64,000 bases of DNA from Escherichia phage phiWec179, in sequence record LC739533.1; one strand, written 5' to 3'. A program made the position numbers and the translations under genes. The notes under the pieces are model-generated. The model did no database searches and had not been told where the DNA came from. It worked only from the letters and a program-made list of their open reading frames with translations. Shown piece after piece: positions 2,282 through 54,400 of the stretch (position 1 is the first letter of the stretch; each line of letters starts with the position of its first letter).

Positions 2282-2541
2282 TATACACCCCTTTTAACAA
2301 TCATTTCACACACAAGAAATAAGCTGGCGGAATCACGGCAAGGATAGAAAGATGTACGATAATCTCTCACCCCTGCTTTTATGATCTCCGTGGTTTTACC
2401 TGATAGCACATTGTAAATAGTGTAACTTGTCGGACTGTTTTTATATACCTTGCCAGGGTAGATCATAACATAACGAGCAAGGTTATAAAATTCCTCGTTA
2501 CGAAAGGCTATGATCTTCCCGCATACCTTAAGAAAGTGCAC
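2281..2541 (-). CDS. Hypothetical protein (86 aa), GTG start
   Basis: GTG at 2539-2541 preceded by AAGGGGG RBS; stop overlaps the start of the downstream gene. Confidence 0.45.
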   Translation of the reverse strand: MHFLKVCGKIIAFRNEEFYNLARYVMIYPGKVYKNSPTSYTIYNVLSGKTTEIIKAGVRDYRTSFYPCRDSASLFLVCEMIVKRGV

Positions 2542-2551
2542 GTTAGCCCCC

Positions 2552-2824
2552 TTACAGCAAAAAGTTTACTTGTCTTGCTGTTAATGTAGTATCAACCATT
2601 TTCGGGCTTTTATAATTGACAAAACGCGCGGTTTTTTCAATAGCGAAGCCGAGATAATCTTGTTTGTTGAAATTACATTCTTTCTTAAATGTTTCCCGTG
2701 CAATGGCGATCGCTGCGTCCAGGGATAAACGCCCGTCAATATTGATATTTGCGAAAGATCCGCCACCGCTCATAGGTTTACCAGTGGTGCCCGTTACGAT
2801 CATTGTTGCGCTATATGATGCCAT
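2552..2824 (-). CDS. Hypothetical protein (90 aa)
   Basis: Start taken at the internal Met (MASYSATMIV...) downstream of the copy 5 hairpin; the track start at 2860 lies inside the hairpin. Confidence 0.55.
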   Translation of the reverse strand: MASYSATMIVTGTTGKPMSGGGSFANINIDGRLSLDAAIAIARETFKKECNFNKQDYLGFAIEKTARFVNYKSPKMVDTTLTARQVNFLL

Positions 2825-2846
2825 GATGATAATCTCTCTTAGTTGT

Positions 2847-2908
2847 GAGCGGTGGACCATTCCGCCGCTCTACGTGATACATCTTATCAGGTTGTTGCCT
2901 GTTGTCAA
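2847..2908 (-). promoter_or_regulatory. Early promoter (TTGACA-N16-TAAGAT) with conserved 5' leader hairpin, copy 5
   Basis: Minus strand: -35 (2903-2908), -10 (2881-2886), then GTATCACGTAGAGCGGCGG and hairpin 2847-2870. Confidence 0.6.
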
Positions 2909-2914
2909 TACTTT

Positions 2915-3112
2915 TTATTCAAGCCCTACGATATGTAAGACACGGCGATTAGCAATAGCGTGCTGGTCTTCTGTTATAACGCCCATTTCTACCAGTGAAT
3001 CAAGAAAGGAAAGCACCGTGATATATTCGTCATCGGGTACACTCATTTCATTAGTACCGTTTACCACTACGTTGATTTGTCCTGCTTTCGCTACAATGTG
3101 CAATGTTGCCAT
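2915..3112 (-). CDS. Hypothetical protein (65 aa)
   Basis: Intact ORF with GGAG RBS; first gene of the leftward small-gene cluster. Confidence 0.5.
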   Translation of the reverse strand: MATLHIVAKAGQINVVVNGTNEMSVPDDEYITVLSFLDSLVEMGVITEDQHAIANRRVLHIVGLE

Positions 3113-3309
3113 GATCTTAACTCCAGGTGATGAATGATGTTTTTTGTTGGTTGACGGTGGATTATGGAGATCCTCACCTTTGCCCGTCCTGCATTGCGCC
3201 CTCCTGTTGTTTATTGTCGTTGTGCCTCGCCCCCCTCGACAAGATTAATACTACGCTACCAGGTGCGGAACGTCAACGACTTTTTCAATCTTTTTTATTT
3301 TCTTTTTGC

Positions 3310-3908: not shown

Positions 3909-4020
3909 TGCAAATGAGAAAAATTCTCATTTGCAAATAAGACTCATTCGCATTTAATAATTGAATGAGAATCATTCTCATTCTCATTCGTATTTCGATT
4001 TTAAGTGAGAATAATTCTCA
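3909..4020. repeat. Three palindromic operator-like sites with core TGAGAA-N1-3-TTCTCA
   Basis: Palindromes at 3909-3935 (12-bp arms), 3963-3983 (10-bp arms) and 4006-4020 (7-bp arms). Confidence 0.7.
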
Positions 4021-5189: not shown

Positions 5190-5555
5190 TTAGTCCATCC
5201 ACCAGTAGCCATAAACTGCGTCTGCGTCGATGAGTTTGTGTTTGTTGTTCCGCATGTAGTCTAAGATAAGTAGACGTTTATTGTATCTGGAGAGATTATG
5301 ACCCTCTTTTCCGCCATAGTCAAAATATTTTGCAAGACTTTTACACTCAAACAAAATCAGTTCGGGAGTTTCTTCACATTGGTCTGTCTGGTACACTTGA
5401 CGGATGATCATGTATACGTCATCGTCTTCCGCTAAGTGCTCTACTGGTCCACACCCAGCAGGAATAAATTCATAGTCCCATCGAATCAGATGTTTCTCTA
5501 CTGCTTCAAAGAAATCCATTTTTTCGCTACGCATGATCTGAACATCAATTAACAT
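5190..5555 (-). CDS. Hypothetical protein (121 aa)
   Basis: ORF with AGGAGG RBS; overlaps the stop of the upstream gene. Confidence 0.55.
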   Translation of the reverse strand: MLIDVQIMRSEKMDFFEAVEKHLIRWDYEFIPAGCGPVEHLAEDDDVYMIIRQVYQTDQCEETPELILFECKSLAKYFDYGGKEGHNLSRYNKRLLILDYMRNNKHKLIDADAVYGYWWMD

Positions 5556-6561
5556 AATTTTCCTCCTGTCTCATTATTCCACCTGCTTGGTTGATAGCAC
5601 TTAAGACAACAGCCAAATCCTCACGCAGGAAGGTTTCACTATGACCGTCTTTCATGTGCAACGCTTCCACACAGCCGATAGACGGTAGGATCTGATCAGT
5701 CTTAGATTTTAGCTTACTCTCTAACGCCCTGCAAGCCTGGTAGGACGGCAGATCAAACAATGCTACACGTTGCATAAAGTAGTTATTATTTGCATTCTGA
5801 ATCTTCAAACGTATATCACTATCCTTTGCAATCCCCAGCTTGAAAGCTCCCGTATCTTCTCCATACTCATCAAGGATAACGTTGATGTAAAATTCTTGCT
5901 GTGATCTGCCTTTACATTCAGAACAACCATTCCCACTTAGATACTTATTAGGTGTTATCGTTTGTTCTCCGTGCTCACTACATAAATATTTAAACTTAGA
6001 CATGGTTCCCACCTTACCAACGAACCCTATAAACTGGTCCCCTCGTTCCTGGCAAGCTTCAGTCATACGGAAAATCCATTGCGCAGGAGTGTAACGATGG
6101 TTTTTAGAACAACGGCAAGCAAGCAGCCCATCTCTAAGACTGCTCCTCGTTACTTCAAACCTACCGTTACACACGCCAGCCTTTACATATTCGTCATGAG
6201 AACATACGGAACACTTAACTATCCAATAAGCCGCCCATCCTTTACTATCTAATCTATCACTACGATAATACTCACGCGGAACGTTATCAGGACACGCTTT
6301 GTTAAAGGTTGTGATATGGATTGAATCATCAATTAAACATGTTTGCCTTATTGCTTCCACCCTACAACCTTTACAACCACTTCCTATTTTAGCATTATCT
6401 ATAGAAGTTGTTCTCCATTCCCCATGTATAGAACATTCACAGGTTAGTTTAGTGCGTGCCCCCTTCCATTCACCATGCCACCCCGTAATGGTCCACGGTT
6501 TATCCTGGTAAGCTTGTTCTATTTCTTCCTGATATTCCTCCCAACTTTTAGCCCTCATCAT
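5545..6561 (-). CDS. T5orf172-type (GIY-YIG superfamily) domain protein with N-terminal Cys-rich repeats; homing-endonuclease-like
   Basis: C-terminus FKLGIAKDSDIRLKIQN...ACRALESKL...KDGHSETF fits the T5orf172 pattern; CxxC / C..HG repeats in the N-terminal part. Paralog of 10129..11082. Confidence 0.6.
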   Translation of the reverse strand: MMRAKSWEEYQEEIEQAYQDKPWTITGWHGEWKGARTKLTCECSIHGEWRTTSIDNAKIGSGCKGCRVEAIRQTCLIDDSIHITTFNKACPDNVPREYYRSDRLDSKGWAAYWIVKCSVCSHDEYVKAGVCNGRFEVTRSSLRDGLLACRCSKNHRYTPAQWIFRMTEACQERGDQFIGFVGKVGTMSKFKYLCSEHGEQTITPNKYLSGNGCSECKGRSQQEFYINVILDEYGEDTGAFKLGIAKDSDIRLKIQNANNNYFMQRVALFDLPSYQACRALESKLKSKTDQILPSIGCVEALHMKDGHSETFLREDLAVVLSAINQAGGIMRQEENYVN

Positions 6562-6598: not shown

Positions 6599-7738
6599 TT
6601 AGAACACGCTACTTAAGGTTGCAGATCGTGTAGTGGTTGGTTCCAGAACCACACGGAACGTATCCCCAGGTTTATCGCTCACTACTACAATCTTACCACC
6701 TTCGATCAGGTCACACTTCAAACCTTCGGCAGTAGCTTTCAGGTCGATGCGTGGATCGCCATCATCATCCAGGATAACGTAGCTGCTATCTTCGAGAGGC
6801 TCCAGTTCTTCGTCTTTCACGGCTTCCAGGTAGATGTTCAGTTCACATGCACCAGACAAGAACTTGGTAGGAGTGAACTCATGCCAGTTGTTGACCCAGT
6901 TAGGCTTGATAGCTTTACCGTTGACAACAATAGAGCTAATCGTCCAGCGTGCATCGTTACCCAGAGAGATACCCATCATCTCCAGACAGGTCTTGAACGT
7001 CATTTTCGGATAGAAGTTTAACTCTTCTACGATCCCTTGAATAACATCGAAAGACAGTTCAGTGCTAACATCCCACAAACGTTGGAAGCTTTCAACATGT
7101 TTGCGATTCTTCAGATTCTTGTCCAGGTAGTCCAGCATAGTTTCAATAGACAGTTTGTCGTAGTTGAAGCTATAGAAGATACGGCTCGGACGGTTGACGA
7201 AGTATTCCGAGATGTATCCGCTGTTCTTTGTCAGCATGAACAGTTTGTTACCGCTACCTGTGCCATCCAGCAGAGTCAGCAGTGCTTCCTGATCTTCCTT
7301 CTTGGAATACACTTTGTCGAACTCATCGAACAGTACTACTGCGCGTTCAGAGATCTTACTCATGAACTCCAGGAAATTGGCATCAGAATATGGCTGCGTT
7401 ACCAGAATAGTTGGGATTCCCAGGTCTTCCGCTTCCAACAGAGTGTTACTGATCAGTTTTGCCAGCATTGTCTTGCCACTGCCTTTTGTACCCGACAACA
7501 GGACACCTGTGTTCTTACCTTCTTTACTACGACGAGCGAAGGTACGGATAACGTGGGCTGCACGTTCTTTGGTTTCCCCGTACAGGCGATCAGGAATCGT
7601 GAACTTATCAGCGCGACTAAGAGAATAGTTACCATGTGGATCACAATTGACAGTCCAAACGCCAGCGGGGAGTTTATCAACCTCTACACCAAAATCTTTA
7701 TTAACAATTGCAACATCCCCATAAACTGTGTATTTCAT
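6599..7738 (-). CDS. AAA+ family ATPase
   Basis: Walker A GTKGSGKT, Walker B VVLFDEFD, downstream arginine-containing segment NRPSRI. Confidence 0.75.
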   Translation of the reverse strand: MKYTVYGDVAIVNKDFGVEVDKLPAGVWTVNCDPHGNYSLSRADKFTIPDRLYGETKERAAHVIRTFARRSKEGKNTGVLLSGTKGSGKTMLAKLISNTLLEAEDLGIPTILVTQPYSDANFLEFMSKISERAVVLFDEFDKVYSKKEDQEALLTLLDGTGSGNKLFMLTKNSGYISEYFVNRPSRIFYSFNYDKLSIETMLDYLDKNLKNRKHVESFQRLWDVSTELSFDVIQGIVEELNFYPKMTFKTCLEMMGISLGNDARWTISSIVVNGKAIKPNWVNNWHEFTPTKFLSGACELNIYLEAVKDEELEPLEDSSYVILDDDGDPRIDLKATAEGLKCDLIEGGKIVVVSDKPGDTFRVVLEPTTTRSATLSSVF

Positions 7739-7806: not shown

Positions 7807-8166
7807 TTAGATCCCTTCGCCTTTAGTGATGATAGCTTCCATCACCACAGCTTTCTTCTTACGTTGAACATCTTGACGGATCAGGAGGCTACCACCTTGA
7901 TCATCCTTATACTGCTTCATGATGATGAAGTTGTTGCCACACACAGCGCCGATAGCCACGTATGGGCGATTAGAATTATCCACATCCGCAGATGGGGTTA
8001 CATCCGTGCAAGTAAAGAACTTGCCATCAGGATCAGTATAAGCAAAGTGGCCTTTAGCAGTTACTGCAACTTCTCCGGTGCTTGTGGACTGTGCAGCCAC
8101 AAACGGTGCAGCAGATGCTACGAAACTTGCAGACAGCAGGGCTACAGCTAAAATAATCTTTTTCAT
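7807..8166 (-). CDS. Secreted protein with N-terminal signal peptide (119 aa)
   Basis: MKKIILAVALLSASFVASA then mature domain; AGAGGAG RBS. Confidence 0.65.
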   Translation of the reverse strand: MKKIILAVALLSASFVASAAPFVAAQSTSTGEVAVTAKGHFAYTDPDGKFFTCTDVTPSADVDNSNRPYVAIGAVCGNNFIIMKQYKDDQGGSLLIRQDVQRKKKAVVMEAIITKGEGI

Positions 8167-8178
8167 GGTGATCTCCTC

Positions 8179-8340
8179 TTATTCCAACAACATACACAAT
8201 GCAGCTACAACCAAGAACAGAGTAGCCACGCTTAAAGCGATAAACATTCCTAATTGAGAATGAAATTCGCCTATGATAGGTGCAGACAACGCACTTAGCA
8301 AACAACCTGTCAAACTTGCTTTGATAATAAGATCTAACAT
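8179..8340 (-). CDS. Small hydrophobic membrane protein (53 aa)
   Basis: MLDLIIKASLTGCLLSALSAPIIGEFHSQLGMFIALSVATLFLVVAALCMLLE; strong AGGAGG RBS; not in the ORF track. Confidence 0.45.
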   Translation of the reverse strand: MLDLIIKASLTGCLLSALSAPIIGEFHSQLGMFIALSVATLFLVVAALCMLLE

Positions 8341-8348
8341 ATTACCTC

Positions 8349-8600
8349 CTACAATTCCACAATAGTTTTATCTAAGTGGTGTGCCTCAACTTGAGATAAG
8401 GTTAGCACTTCAACCAAACCTCTGTCAATACCTAATTTGATCACTTGCAAATAATCACCGAAAAGATCAGAGATTTCAATCTGGTGTTCAGTAACCACCA
8501 CGACCTCGTTACCCTTGGTATACTCTCTCCAGATTCGTCCACACTTATAAATGAAATCTTTCTGGTCTTCACTGATCATCTTAGGCTTAACGCTTAACAT
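8349..8600 (-). CDS. Hypothetical protein (83 aa)
   Basis: Intact ORF with GGGAG RBS; ATG overlaps the upstream stop. Confidence 0.55.
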   Translation of the reverse strand: MLSVKPKMISEDQKDFIYKCGRIWREYTKGNEVVVVTEHQIEISDLFGDYLQVIKLGIDRGLVEVLTLSQVEAHHLDKTIVEL

Positions 8601-8938
8601 TACATACTCCCGTAGTCTGGTTCAATATGGTGTTTACGACAAATAGCATCCCAACGTTCACTACCGAAACCCCGTCCGTGTAGTGCATCGTATGCGAAAT
8701 GTTCTGCCAACCACAATACTACACCATCTGGTTCAGTGTCAAGCGGAATTCGAAATTCTCGATCATAACGCATACGGAGAACAAACTCATTACCGTCTTC
8801 CAGGAGATGCATGTGACTTTTCGCTCGTGATGCCAAGTCAAAGAAAGGTGCCTCGTCTTTCCAAACCTGGCGCTCAACCTCAATACCGTGATCAACTACC
8901 AGGGTAGCAATCACATCTTTCATTTCTTTACTAAACAT
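8600..8938 (-). CDS. Hypothetical protein (112 aa)
   Basis: Start at MFSKEMKDV with AGGAGGG RBS; the track start at 8968 would overlap the upstream gene by 22 nt. Confidence 0.55.
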   Translation of the reverse strand: MFSKEMKDVIATLVVDHGIEVERQVWKDEAPFFDLASRAKSHMHLLEDGNEFVLRMRYDREFRIPLDTEPDGVVLWLAEHFAYDALHGRGFGSERWDAICRKHHIEPDYGSM

Positions 8939-8946
8939 ATTCCCTC

Positions 8947-9192
8947 CTAATAATGTTTTAAAGTCCACTCAATACCTGACGGGTAACTGCCTCGACAAAT
9001 CTTACCATCGGAATGCCAGTTAATGCTATCAGGGAAAGTATGATTTAGTGTTTTTTCATGAGGAAGCCATTCTGTAGGCTTCTCTCCACCATTGATCCAT
9101 ACAAAACCTTCGTCTTCCAGTAAACCTAAAGCAAACTCCATCTCTTCTGCATCGTGAACCGTTACTTTCTGACCTTTCTGTAATTTAATCAT
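8947..9192 (-). CDS. Hypothetical protein (81 aa)
   Basis: Intact ORF in the leftward operon. Confidence 0.55.
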   Translation of the reverse strand: MIKLQKGQKVTVHDAEEMEFALGLLEDEGFVWINGGEKPTEWLPHEKTLNHTFPDSINWHSDGKICRGSYPSGIEWTLKHY

Positions 9193-9201
9193 ATTACCCC
9201 C

Positions 9202-9375
9202 TTAACCAATTAGTTGGACTGCCTTGCAGATGTAAATCCAAACAGGACTAAGCATAAGTGCTACAATACTGGGGTAAATCCCTTTTGGCTCTATCTCAAT
9301 TATTGATAAGATTAAGGTGACAGCACTGATAAACATATAAGCTCCCAAGAAAGCCAGCGTCAAGAATTCAGACAT
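9202..9375 (-). CDS. Small membrane protein (57 aa)
   Basis: Start at MSEFLTLAFLGAYMFISAVTLIL with GGAG RBS; two hydrophobic segments. Confidence 0.5.
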   Translation of the reverse strand: MSEFLTLAFLGAYMFISAVTLILSIIEIEPKGIYPSIVALMLSPVWIYICKAVQLIG

Positions 9376-9377
9376 AA

Positions 9378-9710
9378 TTAGCTCCACAAGTTATGAAAAT
9401 ATTCAGCAAACAGGCAACGACCTTCGATTTTATCCGTTTTGGTCATAACGGATTCAGGTTTAAAACCTTCAATCATTTGATCAATAATGGATAACCACTC
9501 CACTGTAGCTTCCCGCTCCTGCTCTTCTGTTAGTTTACGGTAATCTGACACATATTTAGCCCAAATCTTAGATGGGATAAGGATATCCCCTCGTTCCACA
9601 ATACGTGCCTTGAACGCGTACAGTCCAGCACAGATAATCGCGGAGAACGTATCATCCAGGTCTTGCAGATCTTCTACGCCAAATTGTAATTCATCATGGA
9701 TAATTTTCAT
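9378..9710 (-). CDS. Hypothetical protein (110 aa)
   Basis: Intact ORF; 4-nt overlap with the upstream gene. Confidence 0.6.
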   Translation of the reverse strand: MKIIHDELQFGVEDLQDLDDTFSAIICAGLYAFKARIVERGDILIPSKIWAKYVSDYRKLTEEQEREATVEWLSIIDQMIEGFKPESVMTKTDKIEGRCLFAEYFHNLWS

Positions 9711-9994
9711 TTTGTTTCTCCCCGCTCTGCGTCTAATTTCAATAAGAAGGCTGCATACTCTTCCGAACCTTTGTGTAAGAACATACGATAAGAACTCACC
9801 AGTTTCTTCGTTGTTGTATAACGCTCCATTCCGCCGACAACCCCTGTACCGAGAGTGTAGAGAACAACACCTTCAACCCCAACATGGGTTACGACTTCAA
9901 CCATGTCCGTGTTATCCCAGTGATATTTAGGGGATACAATAAGATCGCCAACTGCTAATTTGATGTTTGCCGCTTCGTCTTGTGAATAGTACAT
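9707..9994 (-). CDS. Hypothetical protein (95 aa)
   Basis: First gene of the leftward operon, downstream of the divergent promoter. Confidence 0.6.
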   Translation of the reverse strand: MYYSQDEAANIKLAVGDLIVSPKYHWDNTDMVEVVTHVGVEGVVLYTLGTGVVGGMERYTTTKKLVSSYRMFLHKGSEEYAAFLLKLDAERGETK

Positions 9995-10039
9995 TTTGTT
10001 CTCCTCTCACATTAGGACACGTTTTGTGTCGATGGGTGT

Positions 10040-10104
10040 AGATTACGTGAGCACAAAGGGGTTGTCAACTACTTATTGACAAAAATTTCTAAACGTTGTA
10101 AATT
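10040..10104. promoter_or_regulatory. Divergent back-to-back sigma70-like promoters
   Basis: Plus: TTGACA (10076-10081)-N17-TAAATT (10099-10104). Minus: TTGACA (10063-10068)-N17-TAATCT (10040-10045). The -35 boxes form the palindrome TTGTCAA-N7-TTGACAA (10062-10082). Confidence 0.6.
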
Positions 10105-10128
10105 AAAAACATCTACAAAGGAGGAAAC

Positions 10129-11082
10129 ATGAAATACGAAGATTTTAAACAAATAGTTAAAGACGATGTGGTATTTGAGAACTTACAGGAAGGTTGTGAA
10201 GTCTTAGGTTGGACAGAAAGAGATAGAAACTTTGCAAAAATATACGTAATACGTTGTAGTGTTTGTGCCAAAGACCCCGAAATGTATGGAGATGGTCTTT
10301 TTACAGCTACAAAAGGGCGTTTAGTGAAAGGTCAGAAATGTTGCGCGTGCGCTGTATCCTTTAAATACAGTCAAAACCAACACCTAATTCTGCTAAACAG
10401 GCATTTAAGTGTCGCAGGGTACAGCATAGTTTCTATTGGTGCTTGGGAGTGTTCTAAGACGAGAATAGAGTTTAGTTGTGAGAATGGACACACGAAGAAC
10501 AGAACCCTGGCTCAAGCAAAGGTAGTAGAACCTTGTAAACAGTGTCTTGAAGAAGGCTGTACAAAACACAAACAAGATGAGGCAGAGGCAAAAATTATGA
10601 AGATAATAGAAGATAAATGTTTACCTTATGTATTTGTAGGGTGGGATACTTCTTACAAGAATGTAACTTCAAAATTCAACCTCATCTGTTCGGATCACGG
10701 TTTAAAAACAATAAGATACGCTTGTTTCCTAAATGGTCATTTTTGTAACGAGTGTTCTGGTAGAAATTGCCTAAGTCTTTATTTATTAGGAGTTTATGAT
10801 AGAGACTTGTTGGTAGGTTTAAAATTTGGCATCTCTCAGAGTCCAGTAAGAAGGGTTCAACAGTTAAATAAAAGGAACTTATTTAAATGTAAAATACTAC
10901 AGATTTGGACTTTTACATCACATGATCAAGCTGTACGGATGGAAACATTATTAAAGAACACATTGCGAACTGGAATATTTACTAAAAGAGAGATGAAAGA
11001 TGGTCATACAGAAACCACAGAAGTTACTAATTTAGAAACCATAATGGACCTTATGACCTCATCTCATGGATTGGTTAGTTAA
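10129..11082 (+). CDS. T5orf172-type (GIY-YIG superfamily) domain protein with N-terminal Cys-rich repeats; homing-endonuclease-like
   Basis: C-terminus LKFGISQSPVRRVQQLN...AVRMETLLKN...KDGHTET; CxxC / C..HG repeats. Paralog of 5545..6561. Confidence 0.6.
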   Translation: MKYEDFKQIVKDDVVFENLQEGCEVLGWTERDRNFAKIYVIRCSVCAKDPEMYGDGLFTATKGRLVKGQKCCACAVSFKYSQNQHLILLNRHLSVAGYSIVSIGAWECSKTRIEFSCENGHTKNRTLAQAKVVEPCKQCLEEGCTKHKQDEAEAKIMKIIEDKCLPYVFVGWDTSYKNVTSKFNLICSDHGLKTIRYACFLNGHFCNECSGRNCLSLYLLGVYDRDLLVGLKFGISQSPVRRVQQLNKRNLFKCKILQIWTFTSHDQAVRMETLLKNTLRTGIFTKREMKDGHTETTEVTNLETIMDLMTSSHGLVS

Positions 11083-11377
11083 CAAAAACCTTAACATTTC
11101 CGATGTTCTTGCTGACTTCTTGTGAGAACATTGAAAGTACCTTGTCAAGCAGTTTTACTAATTCATTTGTAATTTGTTCCTCTGAACGAGAAGAAGTAAG
11201 TACCTTACTCTCACCAACGATGTGCATCACCTTGATAGGAGCATTCAGGATAACATTGTGCTTTTCATCTTCTTCGAAAGATGCTAACCACTTCTCATTA
11301 TTCCCGTGCAAAGCCACGATAACACCAAAACCGTTAATAGTTTGTGAAATGTTCTTAGTTGCTAATGTAATGTTCAT
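11075..11377 (-). CDS. Hypothetical protein (100 aa), antisense-oriented within the rightward block
   Basis: Own promoter and AGAGAGG RBS; 3' end overlaps the 3' end of 10129..11082 by 8 nt. Confidence 0.55.
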   Translation of the reverse strand: MNITLATKNISQTINGFGVIVALHGNNEKWLASFEEDEKHNVILNAPIKVMHIVGESKVLTSSRSEEQITNELVKLLDKVLSMFSQEVSKNIGNVKVFVN

Positions 11378-11405
11378 TGTTCACCTCTCTTAATAATGTA
11401 GGGCT

Positions 11406-11433
11406 ATTGTACACTAAAAATATTTCAGGTCAA
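11406..11433 (-). promoter_or_regulatory. Promoter (TTGACC-N16-TACAAT) for 11075..11377
   Basis: Minus strand: -35 (11428-11433), -10 (11406-11411). Confidence 0.5.
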
Positions 11434-11494
11434 GTGTTGACAAGCTTTTTGGTTCTGTTATGATTAGCTCATACTAAATGAGAGGAGAAAACAA

Positions 11495-11932
11495 ATGCAA
11501 AACATCAAACTGACTTGGACCGAAGCTAAAGAAGCAATGAAGGAAGGTAGACGTGTTAAACACGAGTATTTCTGTGGTGGGGAATGGTTTGAGATGCAAT
11601 ATGGTGTTATTCTGGACGAACATGGTTATAATATGACTGATTGGTATCGTGACGAAGCTTGGCAGGATGATGGTTGGTCTGTGGTTGAGAAAGAAGGTAA
11701 TGAGGAAGAAGGACTGTTGTCTAATGTAGAGCGCGAAATGCGGGAAACAAAGGTGCCCGAACTGGACTACCATCACCTGGAACTTCTTGTGGCAGCATCT
11801 TTCGCTACTGGAGATACAATGTGGCAAACTCCGGTGTCCCGTGTCGATAACCAAAATAAACCGTCTGCCCGTAATCACAAGCTTTACAAAGGTAAAGGTC
11901 ATAACAAACTGAAGAAAGGAAAGAAGAAATGA
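11495..11932 (+). CDS. DUF2829-like protein (the family that includes anti-Thoeris Tad2) with Lys-rich C-terminal extension
   Basis: N-terminus LTWTEAKEAMKEGRRVKHEYF and later WQDDGWSVV resemble the recalled DUF2829 pattern; family call is from memory. Confidence 0.4.
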   Translation: MQNIKLTWTEAKEAMKEGRRVKHEYFCGGEWFEMQYGVILDEHGYNMTDWYRDEAWQDDGWSVVEKEGNEEEGLLSNVEREMRETKVPELDYHHLELLVAASFATGDTMWQTPVSRVDNQNKPSARNHKLYKGKGHNKLKKGKKK

Positions 11933-12075
11933 TCTACAAAAACAAGTTCACTGGTTGTCTACGTAAGTTTGTCGATAAAAAAGGTTATGTTTCGCTTGAC
12001 AACGGGACTACATGGGTGCAGAATGGGACTTCAGAACAATTGATCAAGGCTCTGCCTTACTACGAGGAGGTTTAA
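11929..12075 (+). CDS. Small hypothetical protein (48 aa)
   Basis: ATGA-coupled to the upstream gene; ends immediately before the next ATG; not in the ORF track. Confidence 0.4.
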   Translation: MIYKNKFTGCLRKFVDKKGYVSLDNGTTWVQNGTSEQLIKALPYYEEV

Positions 12076-12399
12076 ATGTCCAACAATCTGTTTAGCGTGT
12101 CAATCGCACCGCGTGTTAATATTCGCTGTCAGTTTGTTACCTTGCCAGGCGTGACACACATTACTTTAGAGTATGATCCTCGTTCACGAGAGAACCCAAT
12201 TACAGGCAAGATTGATTCAGCCTACGGCGACTTCCTAATGGATCACCAAGCGATCTTATGTTGTGTGCAACGCTTACAGGCAGGGTCTTTATACATCTTT
12301 AAGAAGTCTGTGTTCCAAGAGATTGCTCAAGCAGTTGAAAGCGGTATGGAGACTCTTAACGCTATGATTGAAGCAGCCAACAAGAAGGAGGTTTTATGA
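12076..12399 (+). CDS. Hypothetical protein (107 aa)
   Basis: Tightly coupled operon member with GAGGAGG RBS. Confidence 0.6.
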   Translation: MSNNLFSVSIAPRVNIRCQFVTLPGVTHITLEYDPRSRENPITGKIDSAYGDFLMDHQAILCCVQRLQAGSLYIFKKSVFQEIAQAVESGMETLNAMIEAANKKEVL

Positions 12400-12653
12400 C
12401 ACTCTATCACGTAACCACTGAAGGCGATACCGAAGGTCGTACTACAAAAGACTTAGGGTATGTTGAAGCAGATTCGCCTGAACATGCAATCAAGTATCTG
12501 CACTCTATAGGGAAGTATGCAGGGTATAAATATGACATTCAAGAAGTTGAAGTCAACCCTGTACAAGTGGCAACACCTATGGTAGAGTTGCAGTATCTTA
12601 AAGCCAAGGTTACACCTGGGCCTTTGGGCGGTTATAAGGGAGAGGTAAAATGA
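12396..12653 (+). CDS. Hypothetical protein (85 aa)
   Basis: 4-nt overlap coupling; AAGGAGG RBS. Confidence 0.6.
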   Translation: MTLYHVTTEGDTEGRTTKDLGYVEADSPEHAIKYLHSIGKYAGYKYDIQEVEVNPVQVATPMVELQYLKAKVTPGPLGGYKGEVK

Positions 12654-51478: not shown

Positions 51479-54400
51479 TTATGTCGTCGGAGTATCAATC
51501 ACCGGAGTAGGACGAATTACCGCAGTGTTACCAACCGCAACGTTGCTTGCGCTATTAGGAATAGTTGTGATACGTACTCCTGCTGCTGTCGCTGTTTGGA
51601 TAGGATCTGCGATATCCACCTTCACTGGGTTGGTCCAAGTATCGTTATCCTGATAAGGGGCACGAGTGATTACTGTGTCCAAATCAGATCCACCTGGACC
51701 TGCACCTGCGATACGGATACGTGTACCTGCTGACAGTGGGTAATGATATAACCAAGAAGCATTTGTCGCTGTACCGTTAGGTGTCAGGTTCTGCACAATC
51801 GATTTATCACCAACATTTGTCGCTCGGATACCGAAGGCTGGAATGTCTGGAATGTACGCACCACTTGTTGTTACAAGGAAGAACGTATTGTCTGCTTTAA
51901 CGATAATATCCCCTTTATCGAATTCTTTCCCAGTTGGGAAGTGCATCCCGTCAATGTTGCGACCTGGGATTGCTTCGATGTAGTAAGATTTACCAGTAGA
52001 GCCTACCAGAGCACCAATACCACCTGCGATGTTCGTATACATGTTCGCTTCAACGTTACAGTTGATACGATGAATATCCGAGTAACGGCAACGACTCCAT
52101 TGAGGACGTCCAGTTACCATTGTGTTTCCATTCGGATAGCAGTTTACGTTCACCATTTCCAGAACTGACTTCTCTCTACGGAAGAATCCATCGTAGAAAG
52201 TACCTGGACCAGATTCCGGTTGACCTACACACTCGAAAGAGTTACAAGTGATGTTAGCCATTGACAACCAAGAAGCGATACCAAACAATTGCAGAGCGTT
52301 ACAACGGATGTTATCGAAGCTAACGCGGTTCTCAAAACCTGGACCCGCTGATACACCTGCGAAGACACGTCCTGTAGCTGTATGTACGTTACGTACCGAG
52401 TAATTGAAGCAAGGGTTTGATGGGCGACCCTGTGCAGGAACAACAGGTTTACCATCCTCGCCTAAAACTGCGTTCGTACCCCATTCCAGATAGATCATAC
52501 GGATTGCACTTGGCAACGTATTGTCGTCTGTAATAGGCTCACCATAAACACCATCGATCGTGAAATCTTTACAGCCGTACATTACAACAGCGCCTGTTGC
52601 AAGCCCTGTACCAACAGAAACTGTCTGGTCAGGATCACCGTGGATGTTCTGGATAGAAATGTTACGACCAACTTCTACGTGAACAATCTGGCGGCAACGT
52701 TTCGCAAATACGTTACGGATTGTAATGTTCTTACAATACTGCGTATCTGGAATGTCATAACCGTATGGACCTTTACCTGCTACACCGATACCGATACCCC
52801 AGTTAGAAAGAGGAATTGGTGCGTTCGTTCCGTCGATGTGAGACAAGTAGATGTTCTCAATAACACAACCTTCATCGTAGTGCTTGTTGATTACGTTCAG
52901 TTCGATTGCATCGCCCTGCATATCCATAAACGTCAAGTTACGGAAGACACCGCGACTAACTGGTTCGCCAGTACCTTGTTGAAGGATACCGTAAAGTCCG
53001 TTTTTAAATGTACAGTTGTCAATCTCAAAAGTACCTGGAATTGGGTTGCCCTGGAATACCAAGCTACCAACCTGTCCTGGACGAGGTGCACCATCCCACA
53101 AGCAGTCATAGATACGCACATCGCCACCCCAATACATTACACGGGAGTTGCGGAAAGTCGTACCTTCCACTTTACAGTTCTGTAGACGGTAGTCACGTTG
53201 TCCACGGAAGACACCACCAAGGAGGGTGATCCCAGTAATATCAAAAGAACTTGTAGTGAAGGTCATATCACAACCATAAGCATTCAGGATCTTGCTCTTG
53301 GTTGCTGCTGTTGCCACGAGAGCCGCTTGGAAAGCTGCTTCTTGAGTAGCGTACACTGCACTGTTTGCAAACTCGGACAGGTAAACAACATCAAACAGAT
53401 CGTCAAACTTACCACCGTGTGGAGTTAACAGACCTTCTGTGTTTGTCAGTACCCAAGCATTTGGACCTACGCCACCAGAGGAGGCAAGGGTGTCACTCGC
53501 AGAGAGAGTTTTTGGCAAAGTGCCAGCCCAACGGTAACGACCTGCACCCATACCAATAGTCTGGTGTTTAAGGGTCAGGGTAATTTCATTACCGAAACTG
53601 GTAGGCAGATGTACATATTGCTGACGTTCAACTGCTAATGCTGCCAAGTCAACAGTACCAGAAGAGTGGGTAAGAACACCAGTATCTGATAAGCTAACAA
53701 ATGTCCCAGTTAAACCAGGTGGCAGGGTGTAAGCTATTTGGTTAGTGGCATCATACAGGGCTTTCAGACCTATTAAAGCTTGTCCTGATTTTGCGTAAGC
53801 CACTTCATAATTCAGGAAACCATATTTACGAGCGATTGTCTGAAGAGGAACAGCGTTCATATCTTCGGTCAATGTTTCAGTAGTTGTTTCCAGGTTAGAA
53901 ATTCGGTTTTCGAGGTTAGGATCGTTTTCTGCGCTTGCTACAATCTTACCGATGTAAGCAAACAACTGATTAGGTAATCCGGTTGCAGGATCATGTCCAA
54001 GTGGTTCGGACAAGATGATCTGACTGTTCTCAATACGGAATGCATCACCCACAATCTGGATAACGCCGTTGATAGTCACAATAGCACTATCGAACACGTA
54101 AGGAGGACTGATTACTTTTTCATAACCTGTTGCAGAGGTATACAACCAAGGAATAACTTCACTTGGGAGTTGTTCAGTCTGCATTCCCCACAGCACCCAG
54201 TTATTGTCCCCGACTGGAGTCCCTTGCATTGGGATAGGGTTCACCAGTGTTGCTGCTGGAGCGTAGTAGTATCCACTCAAGATTCCGTTCTGATAAAAAC
54301 GGAGTTGGTTGAATACTGTTTCATTAGTCCCTTGCGCCCAGGCAATAGGACTTTTGAAGTAAAAGTTATCAACCAAAGCCTTACGTAAAGTCGGAATCAA

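Follow-up and report, generated by a model that had tools for sequence, protein, structure and literature searches.

A conserved DUF7325 gene of an Escherichia phage interrupted in reverse by a putative CapR/T5orf172-type homing endonuclease cassette

In the DNA analysed here, 64,000 nucleotides (nt) of Escherichia phage phiWec179 (LC739533.1; hereafter called the window), a minus-strand gene of the DUF7325 family, encoding 100 amino acids (aa), converges with and overlaps a plus-strand gene encoding a 317-aa protein with a CapR homology domain and a nuclease-like domain. We conclude with high confidence that the DUF7325 gene is the resident of this locus and was invaded in reverse orientation by a free-standing homing-endonuclease cassette, and that the arrangement is not a dedicated antisense switch. 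The cassette is inserted in the DUF7325 gene at mapped junctions, is present in some related phages and absent from others, and has spread horizontally, and both genes are under purifying selection. Over positions 9300-12400, the window is 100% identical to Escherichia phage phiWec181 (LC739534.1; Stephanstirmvirinae, proposed genus “Wecvirus”), from whose record positions the window positions are obtained by subtracting 48,118; phiWec186 has the same sequence as phiWec181, circularly permuted. The genes on which the argument turns are the following.

11075..11377, minus strand: DUF7325 open reading frame (ORF) with an ATG start, 100 aa, annotated as coding sequence BDU12441.1 in LC739534.1
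11127..11377, minus strand: native part of DUF7325, codons 1-84 (ending ..LSMF), defined by the PF24011 match and gapless alignment to homologues
10129..11082, plus strand: CapR and T5orf172/GIY-YIG-like gene, 317 aa, a putative free-standing homing endonuclease
9707..9994, minus strand: Phage_tudor gene (PF24144, E=1.4e-24), the next cistron after DUF7325 in genomes with an empty site

Which of the two convergent genes is the newcomer? Every gene of the leftward block 7807..9994 lies on the minus strand, and the rightward genes are all on the plus strand from 11495 onward. The DUF7325 ORF is found in all relatives and has the same orientation as the conserved left block, and it is the 317-aa gene on the plus strand that breaks the pattern. 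In ESCO5, where the site is empty, a 96-aa DUF7325 gene is followed by 12 nt and then by the Phage_tudor gene on the same strand. The DUF7325 gene is also intact in phiWec188, phiWec190, PsgM04F, ASO2A and WPEC1, where a co-oriented 163-aa gene (phrog_11258) stands between the DUF7325 and Tudor genes, and the 317-aa gene is absent from ESCO5 and from all of these genomes. The sequence-only reading, which had framed the small ORF as an antisense gene beside a T5orf172 gene, therefore had the relation inverted: the 100-aa gene is the resident, and the T5orf172-like gene is the newcomer in the odd orientation, carried by 2 of the 108 related phage records.

The junctions were mapped by comparison with phiWec188, ESCO5 and PsgM04F, and define these elements.

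10039..11126, plus strand: endonuclease cassette, 1088 nt
10007..10038, minus strand: untranslated relic of the original DUF7325 3′ end (..PIDTKRVLM and stop), 97.5% identical to the gene end in phiWec188 and PsgM04F
11075..11126, minus strand: cassette-encoded DUF7325 tail, SQEVSKNIGNVKVFVN and stop, 16 codons, which in the alignments replaces the conserved DNAPIDTKRVLM
11075..11082, both strands: overlap of the two convergent ORFs, 8 nt, also 8 nt in the occupied loci L008 and L013
11132..11141, both strands: hypervariable patch beside the right junction, DUF7325 codons 79-82, identified by sequence comparison

Homology to phiWec188 and PsgM04F ends at 10038 and restarts at 11127, and the empty site loses just 8 nt (CATTATCA), which are replaced by the cassette. 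The entry point lies after DUF7325 codon 84, and the conserved last 12 codons are thereby cut off. The GC content of the cassette is 35.6%, as compared to 42.5% for the window. In a search of 5.8 billion proteins, no homologue aligned past about residue 85 of the window DUF7325 protein; we thus rejected the possibility that the new tail derives from a diverged DUF7325 homologue, as no homologue has such a tail.

The 8-nt overlap described in the sequence-only reading is exact (11075-11082): the stop codon TAA of the plus-strand ORF occupies 11080-11082, and the stop codon of the minus-strand ORF is the complement of 11075-11077. This overlap is an insertion scar and not an evolved regulatory overlap, because the re-tailed DUF7325 ORF meets its first in-frame stop codon within the cassette that invaded it. 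The insertion of the cassette in the opposite orientation accounts for the convergent overlap as well as for the missing terminator.

The distribution of the cassette is that of a mobile element at one site. Among 50,697 phage records, the cassette DNA was found only in phiWec181 and phiWec186. At the same site it is present in a contig from ENA (L013) and in Logan assemblies (L008-L012), and it is absent from phiWec188, phiWec190, PsgM04F, ESCO5, ASO2A, WPEC1 and about 100 others. In L013, the cassette ORF has 3 differences over 954 nt (99.7% identity) and the cassette promoter and tail are 100% identical to those of the window, whereas identity falls to 83.5% in the Tudor gene and to 88% in the DUF7325 core; the near-identical stretch has abrupt limits at about window positions 9999 and 11226. 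Since a near-identical cassette thus lies within flanks diverged by 12-17%, with sharp boundaries, the L013 pattern bears the signature of a recent lateral transfer with short co-converted flanks. An allele of 74% identity (P0031), found in the Logan assemblies within an ESCO5-like backbone, shares the site, the orientation and the 8-nt overlap. Between this allele and that of the window, the ratio of nonsynonymous to synonymous substitution rates (dN/dS) of the endonuclease gene is 0.10, with dS about 1.66-1.7. An exact-pattern scan of IMG/VR for further occupied sites, using the conserved overlap and tail sequence, gave 0 matches, and a scan of IMG/VR for related loci returned only a 25%-identical paralogue (L007). 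A looser pattern picked out four loci on metagenome contigs of the Joint Genome Institute (JGI; L014-L017), which encode neither protein and were set aside as chance AT-rich matches.

In L008, the relic extends further, so that the 74%-identical cassette allele is flanked on both sides by a 27-nt direct repeat (24 of 27 positions identical; 2917-2943 and 3994-4020). The left copy of this repeat (window 10039-10059) is scrambled in phiWec181 and L013 over 21 nt, of which 6 are identical, and the sequence on both sides of it is preserved. The L008 repeat bears on whether the endonuclease gene could instead be ancestral at the site and deleted in most lineages, with no recent invasion, as recombination between its copies would regenerate the empty site exactly; moreover, the endonuclease alleles have diverged (dS ~1.66) about as much as the DUF7325 gene that flanks them in the same backbones (dS ~1.6-2.0). 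However, the 3 differences in 954 nt within diverged flanks with sharp boundaries require a recent lateral transfer, and an intact gene must have preceded the insertion, as its former end is still there as a relic. We consider an ancestral endonuclease gene very improbable.

The 317-aa protein matches the CapR homology domain (PF21817) in two stretches with 73.6 bits, far above the cut-off of 24.2, and contains the CapR zinc-finger motif CxxC...CxC as CSVC...CCAC at residues 43-75. Its match to phrog_681, labelled “endonuclease”, has E=5.9e-59. The sequence-only reading had called the gene a T5orf172 gene; the protein does have a T5orf172-like domain, but the firm Pfam domain is CapR. In an alignment of seven sequences of the family, Y218, K232, G234, I235, R242, E272 and G292..E295-T296 are invariant, and Y218, K232-x-G234-I235, R242 and E272 appear, from the sequence, to correspond to the core motif of GIY-YIG-type nucleases. 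A comparison with the PDB sequences returned nothing meaningful. Hundreds of large phages encode homologues, frequently with several copies in one genome, and many of the homologues bear an endonuclease annotation; the identity of the 317-aa protein to any annotated phage protein is at most 35%. CapR-domain T5orf172 genes, found in ICP1 and other phages beside or within conserved genes, are putative phage homing endonuclease genes (PMC10448857).

Several observations weigh against the invasion by a homing endonuclease. The nuclease domain of the 317-aa protein stays below the curated Pfam cut-offs, with 15.1 bits as compared to 20 for T5orf172 (PF10544) and 19.4 as compared to 22.3 for MUG113; among seven relatives, MUG113 is matched in four and T5orf172 in one, all weakly. 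The 27-nt repeat of L008 is atypical of a textbook homing event, and because it is unlike such an outcome, the original insertion was probably an illegitimate event. Finally, only two cassette lineages are known, and their conserved arrangement could reflect a single ancestral insertion.

Where might the endonuclease cut? Between the window and L013, the patch 11132..11141 has 5 differences in 10 nt; the ~1.1-kb cassette has 3, and the 85 nt that follow the patch have none. The patch differs among all lineages compared (the window, L013, L008/phiWec188 and ESCO5), synonymous positions included, and the surrounding sequence can be identical. A variation hotspot next to an insertion is expected at or near the target of an endonuclease, and the patch may therefore be part of that target, or lie near it.

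Two further regions of the window show similarity to the endonuclease family. A second CapR/T5orf172-like gene (5545..6561, minus strand, 338 aa), whose product is about 22% identical to the 317-aa protein, lies directly downstream of an AAA-ATPase gene (6599..7738), in the orientation of its neighbours, and probably represents a further insertion of a homing endonuclease gene. A weak tblastn match to the nuclease-domain part of the 317-aa protein (E=3e-4, 25% identity) at 52523..52807, plus strand, may be a third, degenerate family member.

The resident ORF is a genuine, conserved, coding phage gene, as the sequence-only reading supposed for a minus-strand gene at this place. Its product matches DUF7325 (PF24011) with 65.5 bits (cut-off 27, E=7.6e-18) and phrog_9016 with E=2.5e-26, and 29 homologues were collected from phage and metagenome data. 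Against the ESCO5-type genes, codons 1-84 have a dN/dS of 0.03-0.04 at a dS of about 1.6-2. The C-terminal motif MF(D/E)N(A/S)P...KRVL occurs in 25 of 25 full-length homologues, and is kept down to 56% identity; in the window protein, MFSQEVSKNIGNVKVFVN stands in its place, and the protein is thus a C-terminally re-tailed member of the family. Neither a profile search of the PDB sequences with the DUF7325 protein (nothing below E=0.48) nor a Foldseek comparison of its models with the PDB (no match with E below 0.3) identified a relative.

Has the re-tailed gene been crippled, so that it is becoming a pseudogene and its ORF persists only through the recency of the insertion? The most conserved C-terminal motif of the family is lost, and the confidence of the AlphaFold2 model, expressed as the predicted local distance difference test (pLDDT), falls with the new tail from 86 to 62. 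The model of the ancestral-type protein (pLDDT 86, in one model only out of five) consists of a five-stranded sheet, a long helix and a strand at the C-terminus, and the model of the window protein is poor. On the other hand, the same re-tailed gene is intact in three backbones, in one of which the endonuclease allele, with a dS of about 1.7, indicates long persistence, and codons 1-84 contain neither a nonsense codon nor a frameshift, with a dN/dS of 0.16 between the window and phiWec188. Decay of the gene is accordingly a rather improbable reading.

The expression signals of the two genes face each other. All promoter calls, in the window and in its relatives, are sigma-70-type consensus matches only.

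11406..11433, minus strand: DUF7325 promoter-like site TTGACC-N16-TACAAT, 10/12 consensus match
11437..11464, plus strand: promoter-like site TTGACA-N16-TATGAT, TG-extended, 11/12, the divergent partner, for the rightward genes from 11495
11381..11389, minus strand: DUF7325 Shine-Dalgarno sequence GAGAGGTGA, with a GAGG core 6 nt before the ATG
10076..10104, plus strand: the cassette’s own promoter-like site TTGACA-N17-TAAATT, 10/12 in the consensus scan (TTGACA-17-TAGATT in L008)
10118-10124, plus strand: cassette ribosome-binding site (RBS) AAGGAGG, read from the sequence

The good promoter and the RBS that the sequence-only reading had assigned to the 100-aa gene are borne out as sequence matches, and so is the lack of a terminator between the genes. 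The promoter-like site is identical in phiWec188 and reads TTGATC-16-TATCAT at the same position in ESCO5 and L008. Promoter-like sites in the region do not exceed the number expected by chance (10, as compared to 6.9 ± 3.1 in shuffled sequences). Despite this count, the site at 11406..11433 appears credible, because it stands back to back, 3 nt away, with the 11/12 site and the position of the pair is kept in the relatives; moreover, the equivalent of the 11437..11464 site is annotated as a promoter in vB_EcoM_ASO2A. The divergent pair is found throughout the Phapecoctavirus-like phages; the DUF7325 gene opens its leftward arm as the first cistron, and is probably an early gene. No terminator-like site was predicted on either strand in 9500-11550, and no Rfam family matched in 9000-12500. 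A hairpin at the junction (~11098-11136) was rejected as a terminator, since its minimum-free-energy fold has only 7-8 bp, there is no adjacent U-tract and it is not kept in L008.

If both promoters fire, the complementary stretch would comprise not 8 nt but the whole cassette and the DUF7325 gene, about 1.3 kb. The transcriptional or antisense interference suggested by the sequence-only reading is therefore physically plausible, as a by-product. Might the convergent arrangement instead be a regulatory device, in which transcription from the DUF7325 promoter collides or forms a duplex with the T5orf172-like mRNA and sets its expression? Homing endonucleases are often held at low expression, and convergent promoters can interfere, as pR and pL of coliphage 186 do. 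Here, about 1.3 kb separates the two facing 10/12 sites, no terminator being predicted between them on either strand, and the 74%-identical allele has the same orientation and overlap. However, the insertion alone explains the overlap; the two occupied lineages probably share one insertion, so that their common orientation is not independent support; and the other CapR/T5orf172-like gene (5545..6561) is co-oriented with its neighbours. We regard a regulatory device as unlikely. The literature on the phiWec phages and Phapecoctavirus contained nothing on this locus or its transcription, and no transcriptome data were found for the phage group.

The left edge of the cassette carries the remains of one more promoter-like site.

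10040..10068, minus strand: degenerate outward-facing promoter relic TTGACA-N17-TAATCT at the left edge of the cassette, a weaker match, likewise read from the sequence

In the empty sites, the best promoter match of the region, TTGACA-17-GATAAT (11/12), lies on the minus strand within the last 15 DUF7325 codons and faces the Tudor gene. In ESCO5 (L003) it occupies 2379..2351 on the minus strand, which corresponds to window 10068..10040, and the relic thus appears to descend from the promoter-like site of the ancestral gene end. The embedded site is in register in homologues of 56-64% identity (L019 and L021, TTGACA-17-GACAAT and TTGACT-17-GAAAAT), with a constant choice of the codons CTT-GAC and AAT. 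The relic of L008 retains a complete copy through the 27-nt duplication, 8 bp from the cassette’s own promoter. The embedded site may serve as an internal promoter for the downstream operon; if it is active, the downstream genes would not wholly depend on read-through across the cassette.

These features might also reflect a cassette that compensates for its own insertion: its antisense strand would supply a working substitute for the C-terminal strand of DUF7325 (..NVKVFVN), and its left edge would keep or rebuild the embedded promoter. Both alleles have an open tail, of similar sequence (SQEVSKNIGNVKVFVN and AEEVN-NKKNVKVFVN), with an in-frame 3-nt indel and only synonymous differences in the last seven codons, and the AlphaFold2 models show a C-terminal β-strand, at residues 92-95 of the ancestral protein (pLDDT above 90) and at 93-98 of the window protein (low confidence). 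As for the promoter, the embedded site recurs in the empty sites and in the distant homologues, L008 has a full copy, and the window retains TTGACA-17-TAxxxT despite the scrambled spacer. However, there are just two alleles; the 19 of 21 identical nucleotides in the last seven codons are not significant against a 75% background (about p=0.07), and 8 of the identical nucleotides are constrained by the endonuclease ORF. The open 16-codon stretch and the in-frame indel are each fairly likely by chance, the conservation of the hexamers is explicable by the conserved residues L-D and (D/E)-N, and the model of the window protein is poor. Compensation of this kind is a tentative possibility. The fuller proposal of a self-compensating homing element, which joins an antisense-encoded surrogate β-strand and a retained or duplicated embedded promoter to throttling of the cassette by read-through from the promoter of the host gene, seems doubtful to us; if it is true, the scrambled left repeat of phiWec181 would lock the element in place by blocking repeat-mediated excision.

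Returning to the reversed invasion of a resident gene, we propose the following course of events. The DUF7325 gene is the first cistron of a leftward unit starting at the back-to-back sigma-70-type pair (11406-11464). In the phiWec181 lineage, a cassette of 1.09 kb, with its own promoter-like site, RBS and the 317-aa CapR and nuclease-like protein, entered in the opposite orientation after codon 84. The lost C-terminal 12 codons persist as a silent relic beside the next gene, and the predicted DUF7325 ORF now extends for 16 codons along the antisense strand of the cassette 3′ end to a stop codon inside the endonuclease ORF. In a mixed infection, the 317-aa protein would recognise and cut the intact DUF7325 3′ end of cassette-free phages, and the cassette would be copied in by double-strand-break repair, i.e., by homing. 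If the promoters are active, leftward transcripts would run antisense through the endonuclease gene, possibly damping its expression as a side effect.

The seg and mob genes of the T-even phages, which encode free-standing GIY-YIG and HNH endonucleases, undergo intronless homing with co-conversion of flanking markers. The present locus resembles them in its polymorphism among close relatives, its own expression signals, the sequence variation at its junction and the short flanking tracts transferred along with it (here 9999-10038 and 11142-11226). Unlike seg and mob, which are usually intergenic and co-oriented, the cassette interrupts a coding sequence in reverse. In the work of Friedrich et al. 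from 2007, mobE of Aeromonas phage Aeh1 is reported to split nrdA into a “gene in pieces”. As with mobE, the endonuclease gene here lies within a coding sequence, with no intron or intein, and the host gene is still expressed in an altered form (in our case, a predicted one). Both nrdA fragments are translated and reassemble, whereas here the distal 12 codons are discarded and cassette-encoded residues take their place.

A substitute 3′ end of the target gene is carried by e14 and phage 21, which integrate in icd of Escherichia coli, and by many integrants in tRNA genes. Similarly, the DUF7325 ORF is kept through element-borne sequence, and the displaced 3′ end is a relic on the far side. In contrast to the icd integrants, which use homologous ends, an integrase and an attachment (att) site, the new tail is unrelated in sequence and comes from the antisense strand of an endonuclease cassette. 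The facing promoter-like sites with no terminator between them, as found in the consensus scan, recall pR and pL of coliphage 186; the latter are about 60 bp apart, and the sites here, judged on sequence alone, about 1.3 kb.

The closest likeness in architecture is to the CapR-T5orf172 homing genes of ICP1 and other phages (PMC10448857), which share the N-terminal CapR zinc finger (here in two stretches) and the C-terminal T5orf172/GIY-YIG-like domain, and which also stand free, occur in multiple copies per genome, and lie next to or inside conserved phage genes. The vibriophage ICP1-type genes (Barth, Dunham and Seed 2023, PMC10448857) are related to CapR, the repressor of the PLE satellite (Netter et al. 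2021, PMC8096241). Unlike them, the present gene lies reversed within the 3′-terminal part of a small, probably early gene, with a nuclease domain below the cut-offs and a putative activity. It is a further example of a free-standing gene of the CapR/T5orf172 homing endonuclease type that has entered the early region of a phage; what sets it apart is that it lies backwards within a coding sequence, that the host protein has received a new tail, that a relic was left behind and that the embedded promoter was split.

The logic of the annotation is hence corrected: what looked like a small “antisense” ORF is a conserved and probably early gene, and it is the larger neighbour that is the selfish invader. 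The locus reveals no new kind of regulatory system and belongs to ordinary selfish-DNA biology. It provides a natural example, with mapped junctions, of a CapR/T5orf172-type cassette inside a coding region with neither intron nor intein, and supplies a candidate target sequence of an endonuclease family that has been little characterised. Together, phiWec181 and phiWec188 form a simple two-phage system for homing, marker co-conversion and the effects of convergent transcription.

Some minor observations concern variants of the DUF7325 gene and its surroundings. In a 610-bp ENA contig (ERZ28615223, L018), a DUF7325 variant of 138 aa (P0011) continues with unrelated sequence after residue 75; this is either another insertion at the hotspot or a chimeric assembly, and the variant was not used, as the contig is short and may be chimeric. 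On a 535-bp ENA contig, a protein of 125 aa (P0005) continues beyond the usual DUF7325 stop codon into the frame of the Tudor gene (..KRVLMWEENKMYYSQNEG..), through either a stop-loss fusion or a sequencing error.

The Cys-rich phrog_11258 gene (163-165 aa; 2723..3214, minus strand, between the DUF7325 and Tudor genes in the phiWec188 locus) is present in phAPEC8-type and phiWec188-type genomes and absent from ESCO5-type genomes and phiWec181. The edges of this indel are repeated RBS motifs (TTCTCCTCTC). The same intergenic position thus has a second polymorphism in which a gene is present or absent. PsgM04F (OR584014.1, “Pseudomonas phage PsgM04F”), with Pseudomonas coronafaciens as its recorded host, is about 96% identical across the locus to the E. 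coli phage phiWec188, a surprising host assignment.

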